Notes: a model not told the origin generated them from the sequence alone. A stretch of 64,000 nucleotides of DNA from an uncultured Gammaproteobacteria bacterium (GCA_964486065.1 CAZAKN010000001.1:157640-221639), one strand, 5' to 3'. Shown: positions 44,311 to 60,550, counted from the first letter of the stretch. A program made the numbers and translations.

Positions 44311-47300
44311 TTACAAATCAAGATCATTGCAGTCAAACCCGTCAATGGTAACCGCGGCCTTGGTTTGGAAACCTTCCTGAATGGAATAGGGCGTTCCTCC
44401 ACCCAGTTCCACATTGGTCACATTGGTGACCATGCCGTTGTTTTCCGGCCAGGCCAGCCAATCCGTCTCATTGTGGCAATTGTATTCCAGCCACGGGGTT
44501 TCGGTATCTTCATGGTTGCCCCAGACACAGACATCCCGCAAGGAGACAGTCTTAGTGCCGGAGACTTCCGGATCCGAATCCCAGATGTTATCGCCCGTAC
44601 CGAGCTTACCCCATACCAAGTACAAAGTATTGTCGACTGGACAAGTAAAGTGGACGGTCAAGCATCCTTCATCGGTGCGACCGTCGCAGTCATTATCTTC
44701 TCCATCGCAGACTTCCACACCGGGATTAACCGGCGAACAAGCATACTCGCAACCGTTGCGGGGATTTTCGTCAACATCGTAATATCCGCTATTGCAGACA
44801 TCGGGCTGACAACTCCCCTCCTGACACGAGTAGTTCGCGACATTGAGGTACTGCAGATAGGAACAGCTGTTGCCACAGGCGCCACAATGGTTACGGTCAG
44901 TTTGAAGATCAAAGCCTTCATCAACCTCACCGTTACAATCATTGTCCACACCGTCGCAAGCTTCGGTTCCGCCGTTGGTCATGCCACAGGGACCGTATTC
45001 ACAGCCATCCTCGTCATTTCCATTGGCGTCGTAGTAACCGCTGACGCAACTGTTCACCCGACACACACCGCTAACACAACCGGTGGCGGAAGTGTTTTGT
45101 AGCAAAGTGTTGCAGTCATTACCGCAACCGCCACAATTGGCTTCATCCGTGGACTTATTAAAGGTCTCGTCCACCTGACCGTCGCAGTCATCGTCCAAAT
45201 CATTGCAGACTTCCGAGGTCAACGGCATAACCGCGTCCTCACAATCTCCCCAAGTAAAGCCATCCAGACAAACTTGAGTACCAAACTCGCAAATGCCTTG
45301 CTCATTGGCGGGTCCGCAATCACGAACCGCTCCGGCCTGACAAATACAGCCTTCATCCGTCGTCCCGTCGCAATCGTTGTCCACGCCGTCGCAACTTTCC
45401 ACGACCGACATGTCTTCCGATCTTCCGGGCATGGTGGAGCAGGCGTAATCATTCAGACCATCGCACTCAATCACACCAGGTCCGGCGCAAGCACCAAGAC
45501 CGTAACAAAGCGCGCCAACGAAATAATCTTCGTCGGTTTGTCCGTCAAGGTCGTTGTCCTTACCATCGCATAGTTCGGATGCGCCCGGATAAACCGAACT
45601 GTCATTGTCGACCGTATCTCCTTCGCAAATCCGAACTCCATCTTCATCGGAGTCGTTTTCGTTCACGGGAACGGAACCGTCGCAGTCGTCATCCAAACCG
45701 TTGCACAGCTCAGTGGCTTCCGGCATGATCGCATCGAGGCAATCACCCCAGGACATACCGTCCGGCGAACAAGTCTGCGTTCCAAAAACGCAAATCCCTT
45801 GTTCATTGGCGGATCCACAATCGCGAGTTTCGCCGGCTACGCAGGTACAACCTTCGTTCACCGAGCCATCGCAATCATCGTCCAAACTGTTACCACAGCT
45901 TTCCACGCCGGACATATCTTCCGATCCGCCGGGCATGGTGGAACAACGATAGGTGTTGAAAGTAGCGCACTCAATAGTGCCAGCTCCGCAAACACCGATA
46001 CCGTTACAGCTGGCACCGATAAAGAAGTCTTCATCCACCATCCCGTCGCAATCGTTGTCTTGGCCATCGCAGAGTTCCGCGTTACCGGGGAAATTATCCG
46101 GATCCAAGTCATCGCAATCATTATCGCAAACCTTGATTCCGTCTTCATCCTCATCCGCTTCCTCCGCGGGGATAACACCGTCGCAGTCATCATCCAAACC
46201 GTTGCAAGATTCCGCTTCGGCCGGTTCAACCGCTCCGACGCATTCCAACCACGATTTGCCGTCTTCGGCGCAGGTTTCCAAGCCATACTCGCAAGCTCCG
46301 ACATCGGTCGTACCGCATTGGCGAGTGACGCCTGCCACACAAACACACTCGGCATCGTTGATATCAACTAAGCCGTCGCAGTCATCGTCCAATCTGTTAC
46401 CACAAACTTCTTCGGAAGAAGCATCCGCGGAGCCACCGGGCATGGTATCGCACATTACGGTCGTCGTGGTGGCGCATTCCAATACGCCGACACCGCAAGC
46501 ACCCACGCCTTGGCAGGCATTACCGACACCGAACGACTCGTCCACCTGCTCATCGCAGTTGTTATCCAGTCCATCGCAGATTTCAAGCGACAAGGGATTG
46601 ATGGTGGCTTCAGCGTCATTGCAGTCTCCCGCGCAAACGCGAACACCATCTTCATCCTCATCCGCTTCTTCCGCGGGAACGGAACCGTCGCAGTCGTCGT
46701 CCAAACCGTTACAAAGCTCGGATTCTTCCGGCATGACCGCTCCGACACATTCACCCCAACCGTCTCCGGCCGGATTACAGGTTTGCACTCCGAACTCGCA
46801 AATGCCTTGATCCGTTTCCGGACCGCATGCGCGAGTGGAAGCCGGACGACAATTGCAATCATCATCGTTCAAATCAACGAGTCCATCGCAGTCATCATCC
46901 ATACCGTTATCGCAAACTTCCGTGGCGGAAGCATCAGCCGAACCGCCGGGCATGGTATTGCATTGCACGGAATTATCCGTAGCGCATTCCAAAGTCCCCG
47001 GCGTATCACCGCAAGCTCCGATTCCCACGCAAGCCGAGCCGACGAAATATCCTTCGTCCACCTGCTCATCGCAGTTGTTATCAATCCCATCGCAGAGTTC
47101 AAGCGACAAGGGGTTGATGGTGGCTTCAGCGTCATTGCAGTCTCCCGCGCAAACGCGAACACCGTCTTCATCCTCATCCGCTTCCTCCACGGGAATAACA
47201 CCGTCGCAGTCATCATCCAAGCCATTGCAAGATTCCGCTTCGGCCGGTTCAACCGCTCCGACACATTCCAGCCACGATTTGCCGTCTTCGGCGCAGGTTT

Positions 47301-49146
47301 CCACGCCATATTGACACTCACCGACATTGGTCGTGCCACATTGGCGGGTCTGCCCGGGGAAGCAAATGCAACCGTTGTTGACTACACCGTCGCAATCGTC
47401 GTCCAATTCATTGCCACAATCTTCGGCAATGGATTCATCAGCCGAACCTCCCGGTTCAGTGGAGCAACGCGTTTCGGTTTCACCGGCGCATTCCACCACC
47501 CCGACGCCACAAGCGCCGAGACCTTCGCAAGGCTCGCCAATCCCGAATCCCTCGTCAATCTGATCGTCGCAGTTATTATCCACGCCGTCACAGATTTCCA
47601 AGACATCGGGGTTGATGGTCGCCAAAGCGTCATCGCAATCACCTTCACAGATGCGGAAACCGTCTTCGTCCTCATCCGCTTCGTTGGCCGGGATTTGATC
47701 ATCACAATTGTTATCCAGCCCGTCGCAGATTTCCTCCGCTTCCGGATGGATCAACTTGTTCAGATCATTGCATTCCTCGCAAGCCAGAAATCCGTCTTGA
47801 TCAAGGTCAACTTCCGTTTCCAGCTTTTCGCCGTCACAGTTATTGTCCTTGCCGTCGCAAATTTCTTCGGCTTCCGGGAAAACAGCCGGATCCTGATCAT
47901 CGCAGTCTCCCGCGCAATTCAGGATGCCGTCCTCGTCTTGATCAACTTCATCCTCCGGCACTTGGCCGTCGCAGTCGTCGTCAAGACCATTGCATTCCTC
48001 GGCTTCCAAAGCCTGGCTTTCGGAGCCACCGGGCATGGTGGAGCAAATGACTTGCTCGGCATTGTCGGGATCGCATTCGTAAACGCCTTCACCGCAAATA
48101 CCTTGACCGGTGCAAACCTCTCCGACTTCATAGTCTTCGTCGGTTTCACCGTCGCAATCATTGTCCTTACCGTCGCACAGTTCAGCTTCGGCGGGCATAA
48201 CCGCGCCTTCACACTCACCCCATTCCCAAGTTTGATCCTCGGTTTGGAGGCAAGTCTGAATACCGAATTCGCATTCCCCTTCTGCAGTCTCGGGACCGCA
48301 ACGCCGAATATCATTCGGCTGACAAGTGCACTCTTCCTCGTCGGTTTCACCGTCGCAATCATTGTCGCGATCGTCCTCGCAAATCTCCGTCGGATTATCA
48401 GGATCGTCCACATAGCAGACATCCTCACCTTCCGGATATTCGCATCCGTCTTCCGGATCCAGATTGGCATCATGCTTACCACTTTCACAAGCGGTAATCT
48501 CGCACAAGCCTTCTTCGCAAACAAATTCTGCGACTTGCAGACCATCAAACTCAGCCTGACAGCTGTAGCCACATTCTCCGCAGTTTTCCGGATCCTCGGC
48601 CAGATTAAACTCTTCGTCAATCTCGCCATCGCAATCATTGTCCACGCCGTCACAGGTTTCCGTCTCCGGATCCACATTGCCTATGCAATTGGTCCATTGA
48701 CCCTGTTCATCGCAAACACGAAACCCCATTTTGCAAGGGGAAGTGTTTTCCGCGTCGGCGGAACCGCATTCCTCTCGCTCTCCGGGCGAACACTGTCCAT
48801 CCGGAATCACTTCGTCTTCATCACCATCCACCAAGTCGGCATAATCAAGCCAACCATCGTAGAGACAGTAACTGCCTCTACAACTGAAACCGGGTTCGGA
48901 ATAAACATCCAATCCCGCTCTCAGGCAATCTTGATCGGTTTCGCAACCGGTCACGATACAAGTTCCTGACAAGCAAGACGCCTGACTGATGGTACAGTCC
49001 GACGGCGTATCGCACTTCTCCGGGAAATTGACGAGTCCGGATTGATCTCCGTCCTCATCCGCTTTTTTCCCGCCGTTGCCGTCATCACATCCGGCGCCAT
49101 ACAGCGCGAAAAGCGTGATGAAAAAAATGGCCATCAATTGCTTCAT
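44311..49146 (-). CDS. Giant secreted Cys-rich repeat lipoprotein (about 1611 aa). It has about 20 MopE-like putative metal-binding repeats C.G.DNDCDG..DE interleaved with Cys-knot-like modules, and a distinct C-terminal domain. True start is ATG at 49146 (track ORF starts at an upstream TTG)
   Basis: Lipobox LYGAGC. Recurring CDG[VLK]DNDCDG..DE and C.G.G.C.G..EC motifs. RBS aaggagagaatcATG. Confidence 0.75.
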   Translation of the reverse strand: MKQLMAIFFITLFALYGAGCDDGNGGKKADEDGDQSGLVNFPEKCDTPSDCTISQASCLSGTCIVTGCETDQDCLRAGLDVYSEPGFSCRGSYCLYDGWLDYADLVDGDEDEVIPDGQCSPGEREECGSADAENTSPCKMGFRVCDEQGQWTNCIGNVDPETETCDGVDNDCDGEIDEEFNLAEDPENCGECGYSCQAEFDGLQVAEFVCEEGLCEITACESGKHDANLDPEDGCEYPEGEDVCYVDDPDNPTEICEDDRDNDCDGETDEEECTCQPNDIRRCGPETAEGECEFGIQTCLQTEDQTWEWGECEGAVMPAEAELCDGKDNDCDGETDEDYEVGEVCTGQGICGEGVYECDPDNAEQVICSTMPGGSESQALEAEECNGLDDDCDGQVPEDEVDQDEDGILNCAGDCDDQDPAVFPEAEEICDGKDNNCDGEKLETEVDLDQDGFLACEECNDLNKLIHPEAEEICDGLDNNCDDQIPANEADEDEDGFRICEGDCDDALATINPDVLEICDGVDNNCDDQIDEGFGIGEPCEGLGACGVGVVECAGETETRCSTEPGGSADESIAEDCGNELDDDCDGVVNNGCICFPGQTRQCGTTNVGECQYGVETCAEDGKSWLECVGAVEPAEAESCNGLDDDCDGVIPVEEADEDEDGVRVCAGDCNDAEATINPLSLELCDGIDNNCDEQVDEGYFVGSACVGIGACGDTPGTLECATDNSVQCNTMPGGSADASATEVCDNGMDDDCDGLVDLNDDDCNCRPASTRACGPETDQGICEFGVQTCNPAGDGWGECVGAVMPEESELCNGLDDDCDGSVPAEEADEDEDGVRVCAGDCNDAEATINPLSLEICDGLDNNCDEQVDESFGVGNACQGVGACGVGVLECATTTTVMCDTMPGGSADASSEEVCGNRLDDDCDGLVDINDAECVCVAGVTRQCGTTDVGACEYGLETCAEDGKSWLECVGAVEPAEAESCNGLDDDCDGVIPAEEADEDEDGIKVCDNDCDDLDPDNFPGNAELCDGQDNDCDGMVDEDFFIGASCNGIGVCGAGTIECATFNTYRCSTMPGGSEDMSGVESCGNSLDDDCDGSVNEGCTCVAGETRDCGSANEQGICVFGTQTCSPDGMSWGDCLDAIMPEATELCNGLDDDCDGSVPVNENDSDEDGVRICEGDTVDNDSSVYPGASELCDGKDNDLDGQTDEDYFVGALCYGLGACAGPGVIECDGLNDYACSTMPGRSEDMSVVESCDGVDNDCDGTTDEGCICQAGAVRDCGPANEQGICEFGTQVCLDGFTWGDCEDAVMPLTSEVCNDLDDDCDGQVDETFNKSTDEANCGGCGNDCNTLLQNTSATGCVSGVCRVNSCVSGYYDANGNDEDGCEYGPCGMTNGGTEACDGVDNDCNGEVDEGFDLQTDRNHCGACGNSCSYLQYLNVANYSCQEGSCQPDVCNSGYYDVDENPRNGCEYACSPVNPGVEVCDGEDNDCDGRTDEGCLTVHFTCPVDNTLYLVWGKLGTGDNIWDSDPEVSGTKTVSLRDVCVWGNHEDTETPWLEYNCHNETDWLAWPENNGMVTNVTNVELGGGTPYSIQEGFQTKAAVTIDGFDCNDLDL
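45420..48050. repeat. About 510-bp near-identical tandem DNA repeats (about 5-6 copies) inside the giant gene. Each unit encodes ...MPGGS(A/E)D.S...DDDCDG...C.YG.ETC...
   Basis: Long identical nt stretches, for example 46601-46700 vs 47121-47220. The MPGGS-encoding segment recurs at about 45430, 45935, 46440, 46950, 47455 and 48040. Confidence 0.75.
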
Positions 49147-49164
49147 GATTCTCTCCTTTGTTGT

Positions 49165-49181
49165 CCCCAAAAATTTTGGGG
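49165..49181 (-). promoter_or_regulatory. 5'-UTR palindrome CCCCAAAAATTTTGGGG immediately upstream of the RBS of the giant gene
   Basis: Near-perfect inverted repeat. A homologous CCCCCTAAATTTTGGGGGG sits in the same position in gene 53823-54857. Confidence 0.55.
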
Positions 49182-49342
49182 AGATTTAGGAAAACAGTAA
49201 AAGTAAACAAATTGTCAAACTTCACAAACTCTCATTCAAGGGGTTTTACAAATGAACAAATACTTTATTCATTCATAAAAATCCTTGAAGATCATACCTG
49301 CAACTTACCACGATTACTAATAAAAATAAATATTAAGACACA

Positions 49343-49388
49343 ATTTGCAGACATTTAATTTTAGCAAAAATAAGAACTTTTGTCAAGT
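49343..49388 (-). promoter_or_regulatory. Candidate promoter of the giant gene (minus strand TTGACA-17-TAAAAT), giving an about 195-nt 5'-UTR
   Basis: Plus strand tgtcaa at 49383-49388 and atttta at 49360-49365. Confidence 0.45.
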
Positions 49389-49417
49389 GTTGTTATTTAC
49401 ACATTTTTAGCTAATTT

Positions 49418-49450
49418 TAAATAAAAATTCCCCGAGACTGATAGTCTCGG
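49418..49450 (-). terminator. Terminator of gene 49463-51400 (ttccccgagact-gat-agtctcggggaa)
   Basis: 12-bp stem, A-run before on plus strand. Confidence 0.7.
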
Positions 49451-49462
49451 GGAATGATGAGT

Positions 49463-51400
49463 TTAAGGGGTTGGTAATTTTACCCAAATCCCTCTGTCAA
49501 CGCGGGGGTCATCAACGATTTCCTCCGCATTGACCCGGTCTCCATTGTCTTTTCGGTAAAATACCTCCTGAACATGGAAACCCGTCCTCTGGAAGTTGAA
49601 ATGGCTGGAGAAGTGTACTTCAACATACACCACTCCCCCCGAAACATCCTCCAAGTTGAGAGGAATCTGGAAGCTTTTCCCATCTTCCATAATAGGAATA
49701 CCGTCATACATAACAGCATCCCCATCTTGGTTAAAATGGGAAATCACGCCCCTGAGCATTCCTTCCGGAAGACCATCAGGAATATCTCTCATGACAACTC
49801 CGATATTTCCCGAAAGAGGGAAATTATCGGCGACGGGTTGCTCCTCCTCTGAGGCACCATCGTCACCATCGGAATCATCACCATCCTCGTCGTCTTCCTG
49901 CTCGTCGCCATCTGAGATATCGCCATCTTCTTGATCAACCACTTGCTGACAAGTGGTTTCCTCAAAAGTGGCAACAAATCCCAATCCGTGAACATGGTTG
50001 ATGTTTTCCACATCCACGGAAAGAGGACATTCTTCATGAACGAACATTACCTCTTGCAACTGAACGGCTTGAGGATCTGACCAGTTCTCTTGGTCATACA
50101 GCGCGTCAAACCAAATTCTTTTTTGGATAACGCGGCTAAGATCCAGCGACAAAGAGACACATCCGTCTCCATCCAATGCCAACCGGACTTCCTGTTCTCC
50201 ATTGTCAGAAATATATCTGACGGAGACATTATTACAGGAGTGCGGTCCACAGTGGCTCCAAACGGCGCAAATCGTGAGCTCTCCAGCTCCACTTTCATAA
50301 ACATCCTGTTCATCGCCGTCGGTATCGCCATCTTCATCATCGCCGTCCGTGTCGTCGTCTTCATCATCGCCGTCGGTGTCACCATCGGTATCGCCATCCA
50401 TGTCACCGTCTTCATCATCGCCGTCGGTATCACCATCGGTATCGCCATCCATGTCGCCATCTTCATCATCGCCGTCTTCTTGAGGCCGTTCACCTTCCAA
50501 GCAAACGCCTTGGTCACACCAGTAACCATTCCGGCAATCAAAGTCATCCTGACAAGTGGCGAGACATTCACCTTCCTCGCAGACTTCGTTGTCCGCGCAT
50601 AGGGATTTGAACTCGCAGAGATTTCCTTCTCCGCACCTTGCCTCATAGCAAGTACCGAGTTCCATCCCTTCCGGGGGAGTCAAGCACTCGTGATCGTATG
50701 TGCAGGACTGCTTTCCGGCACAACGACCGGTGTGCAGATCGCAATACTGGCTGTTCAGACAAGACTCGGGGATTTCCTCCCCCGTCTCATCCGTACATGG
50801 CGCGTACTGCAAACATGCACCCTCATCTCCACAGTAGAAACCGTGGAGGCAGTCCTCATAACTTCCACATGCATTTGCCTCTTCGCAAATGTTTTCCCTA
50901 CGGTCACACTGCTCCGTCAAGAAACAGTCAGTGTGCTCGCCACAACGACCTTCTTGCCATTGCGTCACGCATTCTTCATGAATGCATACATATTCCTGAC
51001 CTTCCTGCTCAGGCTCACCACAGTCGGAGGCTTCCTCGCACTCCGGCTCATACACGACACAAGTACCCATATAGCAGTACTTGCCCTCGGCGCAATCACG
51101 ATTACTGCGACAAGTTTCGTCGCCATCCGTGATGTCGTCGCCATCCGTGTCGCCGTCGGTCGGCTCATCCCCATCGGAGATGTCGCCGTCCGTGTCGCCG
51201 TCGGTCGTGGAAATCTGCTCAGCGCAGAATCCCGCACTCGTGCAGTACTGCCACCGCGCGCAATCGGCGTCGGTTTCGCACTGCGTTTCTTTGGCGTCCG
51301 AGGATTCTTCTTCCTCGGCTTTTTTCTTGTCGCCACAACCGGCAACAAAACCCGCGAAAGCCACCATCAGCATAAGCGCAAAAATCAGGTTCTTCTTCAT
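49463..51400 (-). CDS. Secreted Cys-rich, acidic DGD-repeat lipoprotein (645 aa), paralog of 51596-53677. Conserved C-terminal YVEVH...DDPRVDRG domain
   Basis: Lipobox FVAGCGD, (DGDTDGDDEDGDM)x2, Cys-rich module, RBS aaggagacagagtaATG. Confidence 0.7.
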   Translation of the reverse strand: MKKNLIFALMLMVAFAGFVAGCGDKKKAEEEESSDAKETQCETDADCARWQYCTSAGFCAEQISTTDGDTDGDISDGDEPTDGDTDGDDITDGDETCRSNRDCAEGKYCYMGTCVVYEPECEEASDCGEPEQEGQEYVCIHEECVTQWQEGRCGEHTDCFLTEQCDRRENICEEANACGSYEDCLHGFYCGDEGACLQYAPCTDETGEEIPESCLNSQYCDLHTGRCAGKQSCTYDHECLTPPEGMELGTCYEARCGEGNLCEFKSLCADNEVCEEGECLATCQDDFDCRNGYWCDQGVCLEGERPQEDGDDEDGDMDGDTDGDTDGDDEDGDMDGDTDGDTDGDDEDDDTDGDDEDGDTDGDEQDVYESGAGELTICAVWSHCGPHSCNNVSVRYISDNGEQEVRLALDGDGCVSLSLDLSRVIQKRIWFDALYDQENWSDPQAVQLQEVMFVHEECPLSVDVENINHVHGLGFVATFEETTCQQVVDQEDGDISDGDEQEDDEDGDDSDGDDGASEEEQPVADNFPLSGNIGVVMRDIPDGLPEGMLRGVISHFNQDGDAVMYDGIPIMEDGKSFQIPLNLEDVSGGVVYVEVHFSSHFNFQRTGFHVQEVFYRKDNGDRVNAEEIVDDPRVDRGIWVKLPTP

Positions 51401-51480
51401 TACTCTGTCTCCTTGCGGGCAACCATGCCCGCTGCTGTTAAGGTTTTTCCGAAATGAAATTTCTGAAAGAACGATATATT

Positions 51481-51509
51481 ATTCTATCAAATTTTGGCAT
51501 TTTTGTCAA
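51481..51509 (-). promoter_or_regulatory. Consensus-like promoter (minus strand TTGACA-17-TAGAAT) for gene 49463-51400
   Basis: Plus strand attcta...17 nt...tgtcaa. Confidence 0.55.
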
Positions 51510-51555
51510 TAGTACTTAGCAAAATTAGTGCATTTGGAAATTTTTGCCTAAATTT

Positions 51556-51580
51556 AAACAAAAACCCGTGCGTTTTACGC
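51556..51580 (-). terminator. Terminator of gene 51596-53677 (cccgtgcg-tttta-cgcacggg)
   Basis: 8-bp stem with flanking A/T runs. Confidence 0.7.
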
Positions 51581-51595: not shown

Positions 51596-53677
51596 CTAAT
51601 CAAACTCGCAATAGTCCCCTCTATCAACACGATCATCCAAGATCACTTCAGCTTGAATAGTTTCTCCATTCTGCAAGCCATAAATGACCTTAATCGGAGC
51701 TATGCCCGAAGGATTGAAGTTCCAATTTGGAGTGGAGTGTATTTGCACATACACCACACTGCTTAACGCTTGCTCCAAATCCAAATCATGTGAAAAACAC
51801 TTACCGTTGATCGGGATATTGTCATGAATGACAGAATGACCATCCATGTCAAAGTAAGAAAAATATCCCTTCCATCCTTCTTCGTTAATCGGATAACACG
51901 CGATAAGCGTATTCGGAGGAGCGCTCATGGGAAGGTGCTGATCTTCATCGCCGTCTTCAGCGATATCTTCGTCGCCATCCGGCTCCACAGGCTCATGGCA
52001 AGTGAAATCTTCAAACTCCAGAACATAGCCCCATTCGTCCCAAGAATACCGGACATCTTCCGGCGGAACGACAATAACGCAGTCTTCCATACGATATTCA
52101 GCCGACACGATGGTCGGTTTGGGCCAAATCCAGTTGTTCCCCGTATGCGCGTCAAATCTGAAACGCGCATTCCACACATCATCCAAATCCACTTGATGAG
52201 CAAAACAATTTCCTTGTGTCGGAATATCCAACTCCTGTAGCCCCCCCTCATACAAAGTATAAATCAAGGAAACTTGTTCATATTGCGAAAACCTTTCAGA
52301 GGCACAAACACGCAAAACACCATCTTCCCAATCATCGTCTTCAACGAGATCTTCGTCACCATCAACGGTGATATCCTCATCTCCATCTTCAGCGATATCT
52401 TCGTCGCCATCCGGTTCCGGCTCAGGCAAACACTCGCCTTCCTCGCAACCGTAATAGCATGGTTGACTCTCAACCCAACATACACCTTCGACACAATTAG
52501 GCATGTGATGAACCAACATAGCCTCTTGTGAACCGTCGGAGGATGGGACACAGATCCAACTCTCAATGCAGTCCTGATCCGACATGCATTCTGGTTGCGA
52601 ATTGCAAGCTCCGTTGGAGCAACCGAACTCACAAATTTCTATTAGAATGTTGCAGTAATGATCCTCTTGAACACAGACACCGGACGGGTATACCCGAACA
52701 TTTCCTGTCAAACACTCGGCAGGCAAATTTGTTTCCGAGCAATCGTTGTCGGTTTCACAATAATGCCAATCCGCACGATCAGCCCTTACACACCGACCGT
52801 CCTGACAGACATCACCGGTTGACGGATCACCGTCCACACAATCCACATCTATCTCGCACTCGTTGCCGGGAACGCATTCACCATTCTCGCAAATCTCACC
52901 GTCATCACAGTGGTTACGATATTCACAAACAAGATCAGCACAACGATAATCATAACAAGTACCGTAATCCAATCCTTCCGGCAACTCGCTACAATCATTA
53001 TCACTTTCACAAGCGGAAAGTTTTTCGCAACGACCGGTTTCCTGATTACAATATTGCCCGTTAAAGCAGGCTTCCGCGATTTCCACTCCGTCTTCATTAA
53101 CACAAACATTGTATTGTTTGCATTGATTGACTTCCTGGTCGCAAAAATAACCCTCTCTGCAATCAAGATTTTCCTCGCACTCTCGGGCCGATTCGCAAAA
53201 TCCTTGGCGGTTGCATTCTTCGTACGGGAGGCAATCCACATTATTGTGGCATTCACCCGAACCTTCCATGCATTGGCAATCAACGCAATTCAAGTCTTCT
53301 CTGCAATCCTCCGCGGAGCGGCACTCACATTCAGTGCAACGACTCGCGATACAAAGCTCTCCTGTTTTGCATTGGAAATCATAGCGACAATACCCTTGAC
53401 GATTGCTCGGTTCGGGGTCATCACCGTCTTCCACTTGTTCGTCACCATCAGGGCTGATTTCCGCGTCCAGATCACCGTCCACTTGTTCACTCTCCGTCTC
53501 CGGTACGCAGAAACCATCCGCGCAAAAGAATCCATCATCACATTGCTCATCGGACGAGCAGAGACTGATGGTGAACTCTTCGTCACCATCCAAGATTTCA
53601 CTTTTTTTTCCATCCTCACCGCAACCGGCGAAATAGATGGCAAAAAGCAACAGGACAACAAACTTAAACTGTTTCAT
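51596..53677 (-). CDS. Secreted Cys-rich, acidic repeat lipoprotein (693 aa), paralog of 49463-51400. It carries a duplicated EPDGDEDIAEDGDED segment and the same C-terminal domain
   Basis: Lipobox FAGCGEDG, collinear Cys pattern with the previous gene, C-terminal YVQIH..DDRVDRG. Confidence 0.7.
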   Translation of the reverse strand: MKQFKFVVLLLFAIYFAGCGEDGKKSEILDGDEEFTISLCSSDEQCDDGFFCADGFCVPETESEQVDGDLDAEISPDGDEQVEDGDDPEPSNRQGYCRYDFQCKTGELCIASRCTECECRSAEDCREDLNCVDCQCMEGSGECHNNVDCLPYEECNRQGFCESARECEENLDCREGYFCDQEVNQCKQYNVCVNEDGVEIAEACFNGQYCNQETGRCEKLSACESDNDCSELPEGLDYGTCYDYRCADLVCEYRNHCDDGEICENGECVPGNECEIDVDCVDGDPSTGDVCQDGRCVRADRADWHYCETDNDCSETNLPAECLTGNVRVYPSGVCVQEDHYCNILIEICEFGCSNGACNSQPECMSDQDCIESWICVPSSDGSQEAMLVHHMPNCVEGVCWVESQPCYYGCEEGECLPEPEPDGDEDIAEDGDEDITVDGDEDLVEDDDWEDGVLRVCASERFSQYEQVSLIYTLYEGGLQELDIPTQGNCFAHQVDLDDVWNARFRFDAHTGNNWIWPKPTIVSAEYRMEDCVIVVPPEDVRYSWDEWGYVLEFEDFTCHEPVEPDGDEDIAEDGDEDQHLPMSAPPNTLIACYPINEEGWKGYFSYFDMDGHSVIHDNIPINGKCFSHDLDLEQALSSVVYVQIHSTPNWNFNPSGIAPIKVIYGLQNGETIQAEVILDDRVDRGDYCEFD

Positions 53678-53794
53678 GATATTCTCCTTTTTTTTGATTG
53701 TTTAAAGGAACAAACTAACATTATACTGTAACAAATTTTTAATCTTTTGGCAAGTGCCAAAGGTGATTAATTAAAACACAATAATTAAAAAACC

Positions 53795-53821
53795 ATGCGG
53801 TCAGACCGCATGGTTTGTTTT
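53795..53821. terminator. Bidirectional terminator (ccatgcggtc-aga-ccgcatgg)
   Basis: 9-bp stem flanked by A5 and T7. Confidence 0.7.
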
Positions 53822-53822
53822 T

Positions 53823-54857
53823 TTAAAAGATGCAATAAACCCCTCTATCAACGCGAGGGTCATCCGTGAGCTCCCCAACCTTAACGGAATTTCCGTCATT
53901 GGTCTGAACCTTCATGACGGGAATTCCGGTTCTACGATAGTTGTACTTGGCTCCTTGGTGGAGCTCCACATAAACAGCTCCGTCCAAGGCTTCTTCCAAA
54001 AAGAATGGAAACGAAAATTTGTTTCCATCCAATGGGATACCATCATACTGAACCGAATCCCCATTCATGTCAAAGTACGAAAAGTACCCTGCATAGGCAC
54101 CCGGTGGAGTATCACAAGGCAAATCCACCCAAACCTCTATCTCGTAGAGGTCTGTCCAGTTGCCCGGTTCAGGCCAACAGGCCAACGATTCTCCCGAATC
54201 CCCCGGATCTTCTTCCTCGTCAGTCGCCGGTTCTTCACCGGGATCATCCATTTCTTCGCCCGGGTCCTCTTCGGGATCCTCACCGGGCTCTTCCTCGTCT
54301 TCCGGATCATCCAGATTCTCACCGGCGGTATCCTGGTCTTCCCAGTCTTCCACCGGTTCCTCGCCTTCCGGCTCGGAACTGTCACCGGGCATATCACCGT
54401 CTTCGGGTTCATCACCATCGGGAATATCGCCGTCTTCAACGGCGTTGCCCCAGCCACGAGGCAATTCGCTTTCATCCACGCAGGTACCGAGGATTTGCTC
54501 CTCTCCCAGCCCGGATTTTCCCTTCAAGGACATCTGGAACTTTTCTTCCAGATTGTCCACGCAGACCATGCCGGCGGGGCATTCGGTGATGACGACAGGC
54601 GGATCCTGGAAATGGATCACGCCGTTCATGTCTCTGCCATATTCCATACGGCAGATTTCGGGAACGCAACGCCGCCCCTCGTATCCATCGTAAAAACCTT
54701 CCAGACATATCCAGCCCGGAAGCTCACATTCCGCGTCGGTGAAACACGTCTGCGGACCATCATCCGTGGAGATCGTCCCCATGTCCACCTCGGTGGCACA
54801 ACCGGTAGCAAACATGAGCATTGTAATTATACACACAATAACTTTAACTTTCTTCAT
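53823..54857 (-). CDS. Secreted Cys-rich acidic-repeat lipoprotein (345 aa). N-terminal module shared with 55052 and 56203 genes, C-terminal module shared with 49463 and 51596 genes. Start at ATG 54857
   Basis: Lipobox FATGC, PRGWGNAVEDGDIPDGDEPEDGD segment, C-terminal YVELH..DDPRVDRG, RBS aaggagagaataATG. Confidence 0.7.
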   Translation of the reverse strand: MKKVKVIVCIITMLMFATGCATEVDMGTISTDDGPQTCFTDAECELPGWICLEGFYDGYEGRRCVPEICRMEYGRDMNGVIHFQDPPVVITECPAGMVCVDNLEEKFQMSLKGKSGLGEEQILGTCVDESELPRGWGNAVEDGDIPDGDEPEDGDMPGDSSEPEGEEPVEDWEDQDTAGENLDDPEDEEEPGEDPEEDPGEEMDDPGEEPATDEEEDPGDSGESLACWPEPGNWTDLYEIEVWVDLPCDTPPGAYAGYFSYFDMNGDSVQYDGIPLDGNKFSFPFFLEEALDGAVYVELHQGAKYNYRRTGIPVMKVQTNDGNSVKVGELTDDPRVDRGVYCIF

Positions 54858-54876
54858 TATTCTCTCCTTTGTTTGT

Positions 54877-54895
54877 CCCCCCAAAATTTAGGGGG
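54877..54895 (-). promoter_or_regulatory. 5'-UTR palindrome CCCCCTAAATTTTGGGGGG upstream of the RBS of gene 53823-54857
   Basis: Homolog of the 49165-49181 element. Confidence 0.5.
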
Positions 54896-55018
54896 AAGTT
54901 GAAGTTCTTTGCTTTTTTCAAAGAGCAATTTGATGTTTAAAATTAACAAATTTTTTAATCTTTGTCAATAGCCATTGATTATTCCTTGAAATATCACCTA
55001 AATTTAAATAAAAAAGCT

Positions 55019-55043
55019 CCGTTGGATTTCCAACGGAGCGTTG
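55019..55043. terminator. Terminator (ctccgttgga-tt-tccaacggag)
   Basis: 10-bp stem, T-runs on both strands. Confidence 0.7.
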
Positions 55044-55051
55044 TTTTTTTG

Positions 55052-56035
55052 TTAAAGCTCTCCCAAAGGATAGCCATCACCTTCTTTGTAAGCGCCGATG
55101 TTCATCGGTTCTCCGTTGAAGAATGCGACCACCGGAGGATTATGCCTTCCTTCCCAGCGACTACCGTTTGTCAGATCGGTAGCATAGTTTCCAAGCGAAC
55201 AGTCCGCTTCCGTCAATTCCCAGGAAACGCACTCCCACTCGGCATGATCAATCCCCCAATCATCTTCCATGCATTCACTGAAAGAACACATTCTGTATGA
55301 TGGGTGATCGTTCATGATTTGCCCCCAGCCTCCTTCTTTACAGGAGTCAAAGACCAAACTCCCGTAATAGGACTCCACGATATACTGCCAACAAATGATG
55401 AACCGTCCCGTTTGGAAATGCTCGTCACCATCGGGAATATCTCCGTCTTCGGGCTCGTCGCCGTCTTCCGGTTCATCACCGTCTTCCGGTTCATCACCGT
55501 CTTCAGGTTCGTCACCGTCTACCGGTTCTTCCCGGTCTTCCACCGGTTCTTCGCCTTCCGGCTCGGAACCGTCATCGTCGGGCATATCGCCATCCCCCTC
55601 GGCGTTTCCCCAGCCGTTTTTAATGTCTCCTTCGTACACGCAACGGCCCAGCTTTTCCTCGCGTCGTAGGCCCATGGATTCGGCCAATGCCTCGGCTTCC
55701 TCCTCGGTGAAGCTTCCGTACTCACCTTCCACTTCGTCCAGCGATTCCAGCTGGACACACTCCCAAGCTTCCGGGCAGGCGCTAGTCTTCGGCGATTCAT
55801 ACTGAACCTGTCCGTTTTGACTAATCGAAAATGTCAACCTGCAAAAATCATACAGGCATCTTTTTTCTTCCGGGTTTTCTTTGCTAAGACCGCAAATATA
55901 CCCTTCTTCGCATTCCTTATCTTGAATGCAGATCTCCGGACTTTCGTCAGTTTTCACCGTTCCGAGATCGACGACCGTCTGGCAACCCATTACCCCGACG
56001 ACGATCAAAAACATCAACAATATACTGTAACGCAT
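55052..56035 (-). CDS. Secreted Cys-rich acidic-repeat lipoprotein (328 aa) with (EPEDGD)x5 repeat and a YYGSLVFDSC C-terminal module shared with 56203 gene
   Basis: Lipobox VMGCQT, RBS aaggaggacgccATG. Confidence 0.65.
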   Translation of the reverse strand: MRYSILLMFLIVVGVMGCQTVVDLGTVKTDESPEICIQDKECEEGYICGLSKENPEEKRCLYDFCRLTFSISQNGQVQYESPKTSACPEAWECVQLESLDEVEGEYGSFTEEEAEALAESMGLRREEKLGRCVYEGDIKNGWGNAEGDGDMPDDDGSEPEGEEPVEDREEPVDGDEPEDGDEPEDGDEPEDGDEPEDGDIPDGDEHFQTGRFIICWQYIVESYYGSLVFDSCKEGGWGQIMNDHPSYRMCSFSECMEDDWGIDHAEWECVSWELTEADCSLGNYATDLTNGSRWEGRHNPPVVAFFNGEPMNIGAYKEGDGYPLGEL

Positions 56036-56160
56036 GGCGTCCTCCTTTTTTTTGGGATAAAAATTTTTTGAAAAGAACAATTTATATTATCAAATAATCT
56101 TATTTTTGTCAAGTATTATGCCATTTTTAGTGTTTTTGTAAAATATTTTTTAATATTAAA

Positions 56161-56190
56161 AAATCCGCTCCATTTGGAGCGGATTATGGT
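56161..56190 (-). terminator. Terminator (atccgctcca-tt-tggagcggat)
   Basis: 10-bp stem, A5 before on plus strand. Confidence 0.7.
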
Positions 56191-56202
56191 TGTTTAAAGA
56201 AC

Positions 56203-57072
56203 TTACTCGTCGCCGGGCGCGACGGGCTGTAGATACCAACCCAGATCGTATTCGCCGACGGTCCCCAAGACCTCGTTGAAGGCCACCGACAGCGGCTTTT
56301 TGCTTTCGCCAAGCCAATTGGACCCGTTGGTCAGCGCTACCTTAAAGTTGCCGGATGCACAGGCCTCCGCATCAACGAACCACGCCACACAGTTGCCCAT
56401 ATGGCTGTAAGCCCCGTCTGCGTCTTGCCACTGAGTGTAGCCCGCCGACTCGCAGGAGTCGAAGACCAAGCTACCGTAGTAGCCGGCTGGGATAGCATCC
56501 CAGCACACTTCAATGGCATACTCCTCCGGTAACTCAATCGGCGTTCCGGGATCTTGAGTATCCGGAACATCCCCGTCTTCAGGCTCGTCACCATCGGGGA
56601 TATCACCGTCTTCCGGTTCATCACCGTCTTCGGGTTCGTCGCCATCGGGGATATCGCCGTCTTCAACGGCGTTTCCCCACCCACGAGGCAGGTGCGAGAT
56701 TTTCTCACACTGACCGAGCAACTCGGACTCACTCAGTCCGAGCGTTTCCGAATGATCTTCCTGATCCTCCATGTCCAACACCACGCAAGTGTATTCTTCC
56801 GGACAAGCAGACACTTCCGCCAGATCATCCTGGACTACGCCATGAATGTCTTGCGTGTACTCCAACACGCAAAACGGCGTGCACCGTTTGCCTTCCAGAT
56901 CGCTATAATAACCTTCGGCGCAAATCTGCGCCACTCCACATGTTTCATCCGTCACGCACCGTTCCGGACTTTCGTCCGTTTTGATGGTGCCTAACTCTGC
57001 TTCCGTGTGACAGCCCGCCGTAAGTCCGGCGAAAACCATCACCAACACGATCAAAAAGATCATTCGGTTCAT
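56203..57072 (-). CDS. Secreted Cys-rich acidic-repeat lipoprotein (290 aa), paralog of 55052-56035. Start at ATG 57072
   Basis: Lipobox LTAGC, RBS aaggaggaacccATG, shared PRGWGNAVEDGDIPDGDEPEDGD. Confidence 0.65.
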   Translation of the reverse strand: MNRMIFLIVLVMVFAGLTAGCHTEAELGTIKTDESPERCVTDETCGVAQICAEGYYSDLEGKRCTPFCVLEYTQDIHGVVQDDLAEVSACPEEYTCVVLDMEDQEDHSETLGLSESELLGQCEKISHLPRGWGNAVEDGDIPDGDEPEDGDEPEDGDIPDGDEPEDGDVPDTQDPGTPIELPEEYAIEVCWDAIPAGYYGSLVFDSCESAGYTQWQDADGAYSHMGNCVAWFVDAEACASGNFKVALTNGSNWLGESKKPLSVAFNEVLGTVGEYDLGWYLQPVAPGDE

Positions 57073-57176
57073 GGGTTCCTCCTTGCAACTCCGAAAATCG
57101 GGCTGCGCTAGAATTTTCAAAAAGACCACCTCTGGATTATTCCAGCTTAAAAGCTTAACTCATTAAGCCCTTAAGT

Positions 57177-57213
57177 TGAAGGGAAATTGCATCTTGCAAT
57201 TTCCCGTTTGAGG
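57177..57213 (-). terminator. Terminator (gggaaattgca-tct-tgcaatttccc)
   Basis: 11-bp perfect stem. Confidence 0.65.
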
Positions 57214-57216
57214 TTA

Positions 57217-57666
57217 TTAATTAACCTCTACGGTGTTCTTCAGAACACCCGTCGCGGCCAAAATGCCGAGAACGATTCCCGTCACCCCGCCAATCACCAA
57301 GACGGAGATTGTGGCAGCACCCGGACCGGTGTGCGCCCAATTTTTCACCTTTTGTTGTTCGGCGAGCACCACGCCGGTGCTGTCGTTCACTTGAATGGCG
57401 TTGGCGTCAAACTTCGTTTCATTCACGAGAACCGTGGCGCCGTCGGCGTCCAGCCTTTTGTTCTGTTTGGCTGTGGCGGGGGCTTTTTCCTCCGCTTTCG
57501 CCGGTGGTTTGGGAATGGGTCCCTTGACCGCCACGGTTTTGGTCGCCGGGGCCTTGGGACCTTCTTCTGGCGTCGCTTGAATCTTGTTCTCCCCGGCCAT
57601 GGCCGGGACGACGATCATCATGTTGGCGAAAGCCAACATCAGCAAAATAACGAAAAACTGTTTCAT
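57217..57666 (-). CDS. Small secreted protein with Pro/Ala/Lys-rich linker and C-terminal HTGPG + glycine-zipper TM segment (possible C-terminal anchoring or sorting signal)
   Basis: Signal peptide, PKPPAKAEEKAPATAK linker, C-terminal ATISVLVIGGVTGIVLGILAATGV. Confidence 0.5.
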   Translation of the reverse strand: MKQFFVILLMLAFANMMIVVPAMAGENKIQATPEEGPKAPATKTVAVKGPIPKPPAKAEEKAPATAKQNKRLDADGATVLVNETKFDANAIQVNDSTGVVLAEQQKVKNWAHTGPGAATISVLVIGGVTGIVLGILAATGVLKNTVEVN

Positions 57667-57807
57667 GTCCATGTCTCCTTGCAGGCAAAACGCCCGCTGT
57701 AAGGGGTGGGTAAACTTTCAATGATCTTCGATATCTGAACTTAATAAAATCAGTTGATTTTGTCAAGTTTCCTCTTCTGAAAAAACGATTAATCATTTTT
57801 TCGGAAA

Positions 57808-57838
57808 AAGGCGCGAGGCGAAGCTTCGCCTCGCGCGT
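57808..57838 (-). terminator. Terminator (ggcgcgaggcgaagc-ttcgcctcgcgcg)
   Basis: Long GC-rich palindrome, A-run before on plus strand. Confidence 0.7.
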
Positions 57839-57845
57839 ATTCTTT

Positions 57846-58514
57846 TTAATGAGCTTCCAGCTGGATGGTTCCTGCCGGAACATGCGTGACGAACTTTCTC
57901 GTCTTCGCCGGATCCAGCTTGATCAACGGAAGTCCCTCTTCCTGGAACCTTGCGTCTATCTCGGAATGGATCGTAGCGATGTCCTCATCCGTCAAGACCA
58001 CTTCTTCCGCCGGAAGACGGATCTTTTCAACTCCACCGACTGATGCCGTTGCCAGCACCGTCGGAAATCCTCCGTTTCCTTCCTTTGTGCCGGCATTGCG
58101 GTGGTGAGAACGATTTTTCACCAAACCTCTGCCACGCCAACGCTTACGCGCCGGCTCGCATACCTTCTCGGCATCCACGAACTGGCACCAGGTATTGCAC
58201 TGGTTTGAACTACGGTAGCCCCTGAAACAAGACTCCGCGCCTCCGAGGCACTCGCAACATTCCTTGGGCTTACACTCTTCACTGCCGAAGCAGTAGAGGT
58301 AGCCCTCCAAGACTTCTTTTTCCAGGCCGGCCGTGGCCAAGTTCGTTTCCAGTTCGGCGATCTCCATGTTCGCGACTTTCAACTGTCGCGAAACTTGATC
58401 TGATCTCCGCTCGGCGTCCGTGGTCTGTCCGATCTGGTGGAAGTAAGCCACCAGCACCAAAACCATGATTGCCAAAACGAAGTACAATCCTGTTTTCGAA
58501 GTTTTCTCGCTCAT
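57846..58514 (-). CDS. N-terminally anchored coiled-coil protein with Cys-rich C-terminal domain (start MSEKTSK at 58514, RBS ggagga)
   Basis: TM helix, CFGSEECKPKECCECLGG..C..C Cys cluster. Confidence 0.5.
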   Translation of the reverse strand: MSEKTSKTGLYFVLAIMVLVLVAYFHQIGQTTDAERRSDQVSRQLKVANMEIAELETNLATAGLEKEVLEGYLYCFGSEECKPKECCECLGGAESCFRGYRSSNQCNTWCQFVDAEKVCEPARKRWRGRGLVKNRSHHRNAGTKEGNGGFPTVLATASVGGVEKIRLPAEEVVLTDEDIATIHSEIDARFQEEGLPLIKLDPAKTRKFVTHVPAGTIQLEAH

Positions 58515-58837
58515 GTTTTCCTCCAGGAAAATGTTATTAAAATTTTTCAAAAAACTGTTTATTGGTTTTTACCCAATGCCAAAACTTAGCATAATCAAAA
58601 AAAAGTGTCAAGTACACTTTTGTCATTGATTTCAAGGCTCTGTTCGGTCAATTATTGAGAAAAATCCGAATAACTCTCCAAGCTTATCACTATGTTTTTT
58701 TATGTCAAATTAAACCAATATTTATTCAGATATAAAACACATCTCTAATCAGTCACATAATGAATATTTATACTAATTTTAGATAAAAAAATGGCTACGC
58801 AAATATTTACATAGCCATAAAATCGTTTTTTTGACAA

Positions 58838-60550
58838 TCAGATCAACTTGCTGATCAAAAAGCCAAAAGCATTGACAATAGCGCTCGCCACATTCGTGGC
58901 CAAGTATTTCGCCACTTCCATTCTTTCATCCCATTCCTGTGGCAAATCAACCACACCATTAGAATACAGCACCAAGAAAATTGCTACCGCCAGCATGGCC
59001 ACAGCCAACCAGGTCGGAAAAAGTACCACCACTTGGGCGGACTTATCTTCTTCCTGTTCCGTTTCTTCTTCTTGCGCCATGGGATTGATCAAGCCCGTTG
59101 TTTTTTCAGAGGGAGGATCATTTATCTGTTCAACCATTTCCCGATTGGAAGCTTCAACCTGTGCAATTATTTCTCCCGGATCAGCTTGCATATCCAAGGA
59201 ACGCAAAACCGAAATTATGAATTCCAGCTGTTCCCTCTCCTTTGCCAGAGCTTCTTCTTGCGTATTAATCCGCAACTCTTGATTTCCTTTCAATGCCAGC
59301 AGAATTCTTTCCAGCCCCTCATCCGAATAGGTCGCCACTCGGCGATCTTGACGAAGAGAGCTTTTCATCCGTTCAGCCCAAGCAATTTCATCTTGATAAC
59401 CAGCCTCTTCTTCCAGTTCTTCGCGAAAATCTTCAGCTTCTTCAGGCTCAGCCACGACTTGTTCGGATTCTTGATCCTCAACCTTTTCTTTACACGATGA
59501 TTGTGGCTTCAGATTAACTCTCGTGCTTATGCTCGGAGTTTCATATTTCTCGTCCGTCATGTCAGCTTCATCATCCGTTTCTTGCCCGATTTCCGCAAGC
59601 GTGGCGTCCGCTTCTTCCATAGCGTCTTCATCATCATCCGGCGCTTGATAAGTAATCGGCACATCCACAATCTCGCTCCCACATTTCGGGCATTTACCCA
59701 TGATAAAATCCTCAGTGGAAGCAAAGACTTCAGAGCAAGACTTACATCTGTAAACTTTGTCGGGTGCGGGATCAGGTTTAGACACGGTTTGTTCGGAGGT
59801 GGATTCCGCTTCGCGGGGAATTTGCTCCGGCTCTGCCGGCAATTCTTCCAACACGATAACGGGCGATTCAGGAATTTCTTCGGCCAAAGATTGATCCGTA
59901 AATGATTCGTCTTTTTCATCCGGTAATACAAGTGCGGACAAATCTTTACTTTTCATCTCGTCCGGTGGCGCGACTTGCTCCGAAGATTTTTCACCTTCCT
60001 CTTTAGGTTTAGCGATCTTTGCCGCTTTTTCAGCTTCAGCAAAGAAATCTTCTTCCAATCTTTTCTGTTTTTGATCTTCCGAAAATGGTGCCTCTTTCTT
60101 CTTTTCGCGTTCAGCGCTTTGTTTCAATTTGTTCCCCGCATCATTGTCCATGTATTTACCACACCTGGGACAACGAGCTTGCGTATACTCCGTGCTACTA
60201 TAATCACACTCCGGATGACCGGAACAAACATAGAAACTCTTTTCCTTTTTCTGCGCTTGCTTTCTCTCTTCCCATAAGTGATACAATTCGGCGCTTTTAT
60301 CAACCTCATAGTCCTTAGTTTCCAAATCAGTTTTCCTTTGAAAACTTTCATAAACGACCACCCAAGTTTTATCCTTACTCAAAAGACAAGAGCAGTTACC
60401 ACAATAACCTTCAATATGATCAATGTCATGACGAGAACCGCAATTACCACAAACCAATTTATACACAGTCCCCATGCTTTCCCAATCTTCATGGGCTTGG
60501 GCTTCTTGAGCGTTTTTGGGAAGCTCTTGTTTTTTACTGAAAAATCCCAT
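58838..60550 (-). CDS. Acidic zinc-ribbon-containing protein with C-terminal TM anchor (about 570 aa). Start MGFFSKK at 60550
   Basis: Several CxxC...CxxC pairs (CGNCGS..CGNCSC, CPRCGK, CKSCSE..CPKCGS), RBS aaaggagatgatcATG, C-terminal hydrophobic helix. Confidence 0.5.
   Translation of the reverse strand: MGFFSKKQELPKNAQEAQAHEDWESMGTVYKLVCGNCGSRHDIDHIEGYCGNCSCLLSKDKTWVVVYESFQRKTDLETKDYEVDKSAELYHLWEERKQAQKKEKSFYVCSGHPECDYSSTEYTQARCPRCGKYMDNDAGNKLKQSAEREKKKEAPFSEDQKQKRLEEDFFAEAEKAAKIAKPKEEGEKSSEQVAPPDEMKSKDLSALVLPDEKDESFTDQSLAEEIPESPVIVLEELPAEPEQIPREAESTSEQTVSKPDPAPDKVYRCKSCSEVFASTEDFIMGKCPKCGSEIVDVPITYQAPDDDEDAMEEADATLAEIGQETDDEADMTDEKYETPSISTRVNLKPQSSCKEKVEDQESEQVVAEPEEAEDFREELEEEAGYQDEIAWAERMKSSLRQDRRVATYSDEGLERILLALKGNQELRINTQEEALAKEREQLEFIISVLRSLDMQADPGEIIAQVEASNREMVEQINDPPSEKTTGLINPMAQEEETEQEEDKSAQVVVLFPTWLAVAMLAVAIFLVLYSNGVVDLPQEWDERMEVAKYLATNVASAIVNAFGFLISKLI

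Follow-up and report, generated by a model that had tools for sequence, protein, structure and literature searches.

Proteins built from repeats of the PF11617 (Cu-binding_MopE) motif are abundant in Myxococcota and are labelled 'MopE-related' or putative metal-binding motif proteins; our literature searches found no functional study of them. Another point of reference is offered by the Vlp, Vsa and Vsp systems of mycoplasmas, in which tandem paralogous lipoprotein genes, each forming its own transcription unit, contain in-frame tandem repeats that alter the exposed length of the proteins between strains. Here, we describe a block of nine genes (g1 to g9) in a 64,000-nucleotide (nt) stretch of DNA from an uncultured Gammaproteobacteria bacterium (GCA_964486065.1, CAZAKN010000001.1:157640-221639; hereafter the window, with positions counted from its first nucleotide). 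In this block we see what appears to be a rare cassette of four surface-protein genes in expanded form; one of its gene classes consists of PF11617 repeat proteins. Our best reading of the products, held with roughly even confidence and based on their sequences, is that they would act as membrane-tethered stalk-and-head surface proteins, for adhesion or as a surface coat.

Several described modules bear on this comparison. PF11617 spans only a small region of MopE and is unspecific for MopE and CorA (PMC6189053). A motif of the teneurin C-rich core has been aligned with the PF11617 consensus (PMC3278476), and the crystal structure of the teneurin C-rich domain contains three Ca2+ ions, coordinated as in thrombospondin type 3 (TSP3) repeats and low-density lipoprotein (LDL)-receptor class A modules (PMC9058538). 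In addition, MopE* is protected from proteolysis by Ca2+ (PMC3423442).

Distribution of a four-gene cassette

The proposed cassette would comprise four classes of proteins: a small bitopic membrane protein (g7), a short lipoprotein (g6, g5 and, as a hybrid, g4) that combines an N-terminal Cys domain and a polyanionic linker with a type-B head, a long lipoprotein made of small disulfide modules with beta-sandwich domains at its end (g3 and g2), and a giant lipoprotein carrying the MopE motif (g1). The preliminary description of this DNA had asked for a synteny comparison, and this comparison revealed a conserved gene order, running from a g7-like anchor through a g5/6-like lipoprotein and a g2/3-like lipoprotein to a MopE lipoprotein, which four independent metagenome contigs show either completely or partially. 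The full order is seen in Logan sequence (L001/L002), where the C-terminus of a g7-like protein, rich in Pro, Ala and Gln and ending in a C-terminal transmembrane (TM) segment, is followed by a g5/6-like lipoprotein of 256 amino acids (aa), a g3-like lipoprotein of 555 aa (P0002), and a MopE-motif lipoprotein with a (DxD)n linker. The other three contigs are short and hold partial orders only. Two of them come from Logan: L005 encodes a 154-aa g7-like protein and the g6-like lipoprotein P0044, and L006 encodes a g7-like C-terminus, P0043 and the N-terminus of a g3-like lipoprotein. The third, the JGI contig L008, encodes a g7-like C-terminus and a g6-like lipoprotein. In the window and in the sister contig L003 the same order is expanded to 1+3+2+1 genes (g7 / g6, g5, g4 / g3, g2 / g1). 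We also noticed that on L005 a divergent gene for a PilB/GspE-like secretion ATPase (3-716, minus strand) lies upstream of the g7-like gene, with a GC content of 0.48 versus 0.58-0.60 for the cassette genes.

The lineage of the window is represented in three assemblies, namely a 232-kb NCBI contig, the ENA contig L003 and GCA_964434655.1 (L007). Beyond it, relatives are scarce. When 1.84 billion representative proteins were searched exhaustively with HMMER, using a profile built from g3, g2 and P0002, 40 matches were returned at E <= 1e-3, and the three below 1e-30 were the query's own sequence, P0002 and g2 of the sister strain. The remaining matches align to the cysteine-module region of proteins with DUF7107 or Dickkopf_N modules, with the exception of g4 of the sister strain (P0005), whose match is to the C-terminal type-A beta domain. 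In this search only the present lineage had the full beta-domain region, and P0002 aligns to part of it. Word-indexed searching with g3 likewise recovered only its own sequence and P0002, the latter at 54% identity over 24% of the query. When an alignment of g4, g5 and g6 was used in the same way, only sister-strain proteins came back, and the search was swamped by acidic low-complexity words; once the linkers were removed, it found P0043 and P0044. A scan of metagenome contigs with linker patterns found nothing, a second scan found L008, and a scan of viral contigs found nothing. Among species-representative genomes there was a single related locus, encoding a cysteine-module lipoprotein of a Myxococcales metagenome-assembled genome, which is the closest genome match. 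Taken together, the families of g2 to g6 and the cassette itself are essentially undescribed and very rare, and the motif family into which g1 falls is known but uncharacterised.

Architecture of the encoded proteins

As first described, the nine consecutive open reading frames (ORFs) of the block are all on the minus strand, where they lie head to tail (44311-60616). With coordinates and lengths counted from the ATG located 3' of each Shine-Dalgarno site, the lipoprotein genes are g1 (44311..49146, 1611 aa), g2 (49463..51400, 645 aa), g3 (51596..53677, 693 aa), the mosaic g4 (53823..54857, 344 aa), g5 (55052..56035, 327 aa) and g6 (56203..57072, 289 aa). They are followed by g7 (57217..57666, 149 aa), which encodes the bitopic membrane protein, g8 (57846..58514, 222 aa), whose product has an N-terminal TM segment, and g9 (58838..60550, 570 aa), whose product has a C-terminal TM region. 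The ORF starts used previously for g1, g4, g5, g6 and g9 are probably TTG/GTG extensions upstream of the real ATG.

The lipobox read earlier in six of the products is present in each of g1 to g6 (GAGC, VAGC, FAGC, ATGC, VMGC and TAGC, respectively), with its Cys at residues 18-22 of the ATG-start proteins. A lipobox within about the first 35 residues, behind a signal peptide with a positively charged start and a hydrophobic core, is the sequence criterion for bacterial lipoproteins, the substrates of Lgt and LspA, and g1 to g6 agree with it; neither lgt nor lspA is encoded in the window. The signal peptide or TM anchor expected in the other three proteins was recovered as well. In g7, a signal peptide leads into an ectodomain rich in Pro, Ala and Lys, behind which a C-terminal TM segment and a short tail follow (hydrophobic segments 1-26 and 114-143); g8 has an N-terminal TM anchor and a short 9-Cys patch; and g9 contains several CxxC zinc-ribbon-like pairs and, ahead of its C-terminal TM region (504-537), a low-complexity stretch rich in Glu and Lys. 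The products, introduced as secreted, are predicted from these lipoboxes and TM segments to be exported and membrane-tethered. Domain-library searches found no enzyme domain in any of the nine proteins, which agrees with the preliminary description, and for exported, tethered products of this kind cell-surface display is the natural reading. The characterization of all products as hyper-acidic and rich in cysteine applies to g1 to g6, in which Asp and Glu together make up 21.8-26.7% of residues and Cys 3.7-9.9%, with net charges of -54 to -364 per protein (13.3% Asp and Glu and 0.69% Cys in 13 pooled flanking proteins). It does not extend to g7 (no Cys, net charge +2), g8 (net charge -4) or g9.

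A single paralogous family of nine, as originally proposed, is not what all-against-all BLASTP shows. Rather, g2 to g6 form a mosaic, and g7, g8 and g9 match nothing in the block. g2 and g3 are alike over their full length (E 2.6e-38), as are g5 and g6 (E 2.4e-57). The N-terminal half of g4 matches g5 and g6 (E 9e-43 to g6), and its C-terminal ~100 residues match the C-termini of g2 (E 2.7e-23) and g3 (E 1.6e-19); g1 has only the leader/signal region in common with g4. g1 to g6 follow a common design, in which a lipid anchor is followed by cysteine modules, at least one acidic low-complexity linker and a C-terminal domain of ~100 residues. In g2, the cysteine modules lead into a (DGDTDGD)n linker and then two beta domains, one in the middle and a type-A one at the C-terminus, with another acidic linker between them. 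g3 has about ten modules of the CxxxDCxxxxxCxxxxC type, a (DGDEDIxE)n linker, and middle and type-A beta domains. g5 consists of an N-terminal Cys domain, a (DGDEPE)n linker and a type-B C-terminal domain, and its gene contains an 18-nt tandem repeat in 5.7 copies; the domain architecture is common to g6, P0043, P0044, the 256-aa protein of L001 and the L008 protein. g4 is the hybrid, in which a Cys domain like that of g5 and g6 at the N-terminus is joined, through an acidic, Pro-containing linker, to a type-A beta-sandwich like that of g2 and g3 at the C-terminus. The runs of (EPEDGD)n and (DGDEDI)n, previously likened to Ca2+-binding repeat motifs, behave as low-complexity linkers, with a predicted local distance difference test (pLDDT) score below 50, strain-variable length and no TSP3 or RTX match.

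No family was recognised in g2 to g8 among Pfam, NCBIfam and PADLOC models. In the exhaustive search, the cysteine modules of g2 and g3 drew matches from proteins composed of DUF7107 and Dickkopf_N modules, yet neither g2 nor g3 matches DUF7107 (PF23416) or Dickkopf_N (PF04706) at E <= 0.1, models that the remote homologues P0007, P0010 and P0014 do match; moreover, the beta domains of g2 and g3 have no counterpart in DUF7107/Dickkopf_N proteins. By profile comparison with hhalign, there is a weak link between the type-A C-terminal domain and the middle domains of g2 and g3 (90% probability) and a still weaker one to type B of g5 and g6 (32-59%); none of these beta domains was linked to the C-terminal domain of g1. 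In an AlphaFold2 model of g4 (mean pLDDT 47.5), an eight-strand beta-sandwich spans residues 237-343 (pLDDT ~70), and the linker and N-terminal domain fall below 50; the model of g6 (mean pLDDT 43.4) is unusable. On the strength of these models, the heads may be generic binding-type folds (Ig/FN3/CBM-like) that allow no specific ligand to be inferred.

The two genes beyond g7 can be compared with the cassette by their codon use. That of g8 is like the block (GC content at third codon positions, GC3, 0.63), and g8 was not seen beside the cassette on other contigs; its membership is uncertain. g9 has only sub-threshold zinc-ribbon matches in Pfam, its codon use is host-like (GC3 0.42 and GAC fraction 0.24, as in the flanks), and, as with g8, none of the other contigs showed it next to the cassette. 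g9 probably does not belong to the cassette.

Expression signals, genomic setting and strain variation

The genes are separated by AT-rich spacers of 144-323 nt (GC 0.25-0.42) that hold recognisable expression signals. The strong ribosome-binding site reported for each gene is there in all nine cases (AAGGAG or GGAGG, 5-9 nt 5' of the ATG). A hairpin terminator had also been reported for each gene, and eight of them stand, with a G+C-rich hairpin and a T-run right after the stop codon of g1 (44266..44289), g2 (49455-49427), g3 (51588-51562), g4 (53816-53790), g5 (55039-55016), g6 (56185-56162), g8 (57836-57811) and g9 (58818-58791), all on the minus strand; the hairpin after g7 lacks a T-run. 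The region contains 37 terminator-like sites, compared with 17.5 +/- 3.3 in shuffles. As for an individual promoter before every gene, this could be upheld for seven of the nine: a promoter-like site was scored before g1, g2, g3, g5, g8 and g9, one before g7 was recognised by eye, and before g6 we found none. Sites with a near-consensus extended -10 element precede g1 (49358..49386, TTGACA-17-TAAAAT with an upstream TG), g2 (51509-51481), g5 (56112-56084) and g9 (60635-60607), again on the minus strand; the sites of g3, g7 and g8 are weaker. The promoter context thought to be shared by all genes is restricted to five, since TTGACAAA occurs upstream of g1, g2, g4, g5 and g7 (nine matches in the whole window versus 2.7 expected); the TTTGTCAAK context given before is its reverse complement.

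Some features of the leaders deserve mention in their own right. The g1 leader (49147-49386) comprises ~200 nt of AT-rich sequence between the near-consensus promoter and the start codon and has no Rfam match, and an Rfam scan of the whole window gave none either. Short G+C stem-loops lie directly 5' of the Shine-Dalgarno site of g1 (49150-49200, CCCCAAAATTTTTGGGG), g4 (54860-54900), g2 (51403-51440, GCGGGCATGGTTGCCCGC), g7 (57670-57710) and g6 (57075-57110), on the minus strand. Those of g2 and g7 are apparently swapped between the window and L003, an exchange that hints at gene conversion or at a common leader element for the control of mRNA stability or translation.

The block lies, as had been noted, within a surface-glycan locus, with GT4-GT4-Wzy and Wzz as its two flanks. 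Its GC content (0.46-0.55) differs from that of the flanks (0.36-0.43), as does its GC3 (0.45-0.70 versus 0.33-0.45). The GAC and AAG fractions are also higher, including in the non-acidic g7 and g8, and the related cassettes are found on contigs of 51-59% GC. Judging by composition, the segment from g8 to g1 was probably acquired horizontally into a low-GC genome, between Wzy and g9/Wzz. Neither an integrase gene nor a tRNA gene turned up within the block or next to it, there was no match to the PADLOC anti-phage defence models, and a prophage or defence island was rejected as its identity. The rest of the window contains housekeeping genes (ClpB, UvrD, GatA, LigA, MreB, DnaK/J, GrpE and HrcA), nearly all on one strand. 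A negative GC skew extends throughout the window (1-64000), whose sizeable ORFs are almost all encoded by the minus strand. The ORFs at 9037-10323 and 19918-21195 belong to no Pfam family, and a BNR/Sortilin-repeat protein is encoded at 26138-27202.

Comparison of the window with the sister contig L003 gives a view of how the block changes between strains. The ratio of nonsynonymous to synonymous substitution rates (dN/dS) is 0.25 for g1, 0.16 for g2, 0.31 for g4, 0.19 for g5, 0.13 for g6 and 0.15 for g8. As calculated from the two sequences, these values show purifying selection on the six genes, and on their account a non-coding artefact was rejected. g7 is the most divergent (87.5% amino-acid identity, dN/dS 0.65). 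The synonymous rate is very uneven along the block (dS 0.20 in g6, 0.13 in g2 and 0.11 in g7, versus 0.0025 in g3, 0.003 in g9 and 0-0.06 in the flanks), which suggests a recombination mosaic. Two of the lipoproteins also differ in length. g3 has 693 aa and its sister-strain counterpart P0003 has 757, the latter with eight extra 24-nt linker units (+64 aa). g2 has 645 aa in the window and 515 in the sister strain, where an in-frame segment of 130 residues with the whole middle beta domain is absent (residues ~366-488; window 49936-50304 versus L003 13546-13583), and the deletion junction is bounded by repeated DGDEQ-coding sequence. Therefore, the linker repeats appear to mediate both changes in length and the gain or loss of domains, which would also explain the hybrid g4.

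Tandem paralogous lipoprotein genes with an in-frame repeat number that differs between strains are also what characterizes the mycoplasma Vlp, Vsa and Vsp systems, and this likeness raises the question of whether the cassette encodes a surface shield, variable in size and domains, that varies or masks the cell surface against phage, predators or host defences, with linker-repeat length and gene mosaicism as the functional variables and ligand binding being secondary. Such a function would fit the promoter and terminator that accompany the individual paralogues, the repeat-number and domain differences between near-identical strains, the recombination to which the uneven dS points, and the apparent exchange of the g2 and g7 leader hairpins. 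Nonetheless, we regard it as unlikely. We saw no device for phase variation: both strains have the same A8 tract before g3, no invertible or homopolymeric promoter spacer was noted, and the block contains no recombinase gene. Furthermore, the structured parts have a dN/dS well below 1, and the maintenance of gene order across distant contigs suggests fixed complementary roles rather than interchangeable variants. The block is also set apart from the mycoplasma systems by the lack of any sequence relationship, by its cysteine content and folded heads, and by its fixed order of classes.

The MopE-type motif of g1 and the proposed mechanism

The suggestion that PF11617 be looked for in these proteins turned out to be right for g1, which matches the Pfam model over 20 stretches with 382 bits and an E of 4e-117 (gathering score 27 bits); g2 to g9 have no match. 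g1 begins with an N-terminal Cys module, continues with the 20 motifs, arranged in six super-repeats of ~500 nt (spacing 498-516 nt, ~168 aa), and ends with a C-terminal domain of ~110 aa. The DxDxDG motif occurs 24 times in g1, 10 times in g2, within the first linker, and not at all in g3 to g9, and the pattern D.D.DG..D..D is found twice in g1 and twice in g2. Searches with tblastn yielded weak matches of g1 to 'MopE-related protein' genes of Sandaracinus and Chondrinema. g1 thus resembles other PF11617 repeat proteins in that it is predicted to be secreted, cysteine-rich and very acidic, with 20 copies of C-DG-DNDCDG-DE. It differs from them in its lipoprotein anchor, its ~168-aa super-repeats, its place in a fixed cassette with three other gene classes, and its occurrence in a low-GC genome.

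The name of the Pfam family evokes copper, and we found that MopE-type copper binding has to be rejected for g1. g1 aligns only to residues 5-44 of MopE* (PDB 2VOV; E 0.0096), and the g1 repeat profile gives an E of 1.3; g1 is not homologous to the copper-binding core of MopE and CorA, and the core that forms the copper site of MopE* is unmatched. Since PF11617 is only a short motif of MopE and the alignment of g1 to MopE* is confined to those residues, a match to this model does not imply copper. Another likeness is to the teneurin C-rich, TSP3 and LDL-receptor class A modules, with which g1 shares short acidic, Asp/Asn-rich motifs between Cys residues that are disulfide-bonded in the known modules. 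By analogy with these, the acidic C-DG-DNDCDG-DE and DxDxDG sites of g1 probably hold structural Ca2+. The likeness is one of motifs only, as g1 has no Pfam TSP_3 or Ldl_recept_a match. The TSP3- or RTX-like repeats of the preliminary description did not hold up in any of the nine proteins: the Pfam models for TSP3, RTX, EGF and dockerin, three of which it had named as checks, gave no match at E <= 0.1, and there are no RTX nonapeptides (GGxGxDxUx), so membership in the RTX or TSP3 families was rejected.

These acidic motifs also invite an explanation in terms of bulk ion binding, in which the polyanionic runs and MopE motifs would bind Ca2+, Mg2+ or metals with high capacity at the cell surface and serve as a calsequestrin-like store or buffer of divalent cations, or as a mineral-nucleating coat; this corresponds to the sequestration idea of the preliminary description. 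The large negative net charges, the 34 DxDxDG motifs of g1 and g2 together, the annotation of PF11617 as a putative metal-binding motif, and the three Ca2+ ions bound through the analogous teneurin motif (PMC9058538) are all compatible with this idea. However, the linkers of g3 to g6, with their abundant Pro or Ile, have no DxDxDG; neither conserved beta-sandwich heads nor an ordered cassette would be necessary for such a role; no transporter or mineralisation gene was found in the block; and the support that copper binding might have lent is missing, given the short match to MopE*. We consider a cation store quite improbable. That the proteins are tethered cysteine-knot effectors, toxin- or inhibitor-like (Dickkopf-, colipase- or conotoxin-like) and acting on other cells after proteolytic release, is very improbable: the DUF7107 and Dickkopf_N modules in the remote matches of g2 and g3 would speak for it, but g2 and g3 themselves miss these models, no protease or processing signals were identified, the PADLOC defence library had no match, and a lipid anchor with long stalks fits structural display better.

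We therefore return to membrane-tethered stalk-and-head proteins and outline how such a system might operate. The lipoproteins would be exported by the Sec pathway and lipidated on the lipobox Cys, so that their N-termini would be held in the membrane. Oxidative folding of the cysteine modules would then produce rigid, disulfide-stapled units that act as stalks, and in g1 the stalk would be stiffened by structural Ca2+, as in the sequence-similar teneurin C-rich domain. The disordered, polyanionic linkers may serve as spacers that hold the C-terminal beta-sandwich heads off the membrane, and the heads may bind a ligand on a partner cell or on the cell's own envelope. The g7-like bitopic protein, conserved along with the lipoproteins, could be their partner. 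Over evolutionary time, the linker-coding repeats would be substrates for recombination, altering stalk length and deleting or swapping domains, and would in this way have given rise to the mosaic paralogues, while the cassette as a whole would have been acquired horizontally and placed next to genes for glycan polymers.

Several observations weigh against parts of this scheme. Both structural models are of low confidence and leave the N-terminal Cys domain and the type-B head unmodelled, and Foldseek found nothing in the PDB at E <= 1e-3, the fold matches being generic. The g1 repeat profile, run with HMMER against the PDB, reaches no teneurin or TSP3 structure, and because of this, Ca2+ binding is a motif-level analogy only. 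The number of Cys residues after the lipid Cys is even in g1 (160), g2 (42), g5 (14) and g6 (12), as stapled modules would have it, but odd in g3 (61) and g4 (11). Lastly, cassette genes are GC-richer than their surroundings on other contigs as well; hence the compositional contrast may be partly intrinsic and is no proof of recent transfer. With regard to the odd counts, the C-termini of g3 (RGDYCEFD, 51596-51620) and g4 (RGVYCIF, 53823-53845) each contain a Cys, and a free C-terminal Cys in these two proteins could, as far as their sequences suggest, form an intermolecular disulfide.

It is tempting to go one step further and to envisage the g7-like anchor and the three lipoprotein classes as a single undescribed surface organelle, a Ca2+-rigidified, disulfide-stapled tether or adhesin complex that would be horizontally mobile between distant uncultured bacteria, including a small-genome, low-GC lineage possibly attached to other cells, and that would diversify by recombination of its linker repeats. 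We regard this extended picture as doubtful and put it forward as speculation. Only with an identified organism and proof of expression would the locus have more than limited practical value. If the stalk-and-head reading is true, however, the cassette would supply an uncultured bacterium, and a few unrelated ones, with their main exposed proteins, and would represent a candidate attachment or coat system without a characterised relative. It would also offer a compact, testable case of surface-protein evolution, in which low-complexity linker repeats serve as recombination sites for swapping, deleting and duplicating folded domains, and it gives the PF11617 repeat proteins a genomic context.

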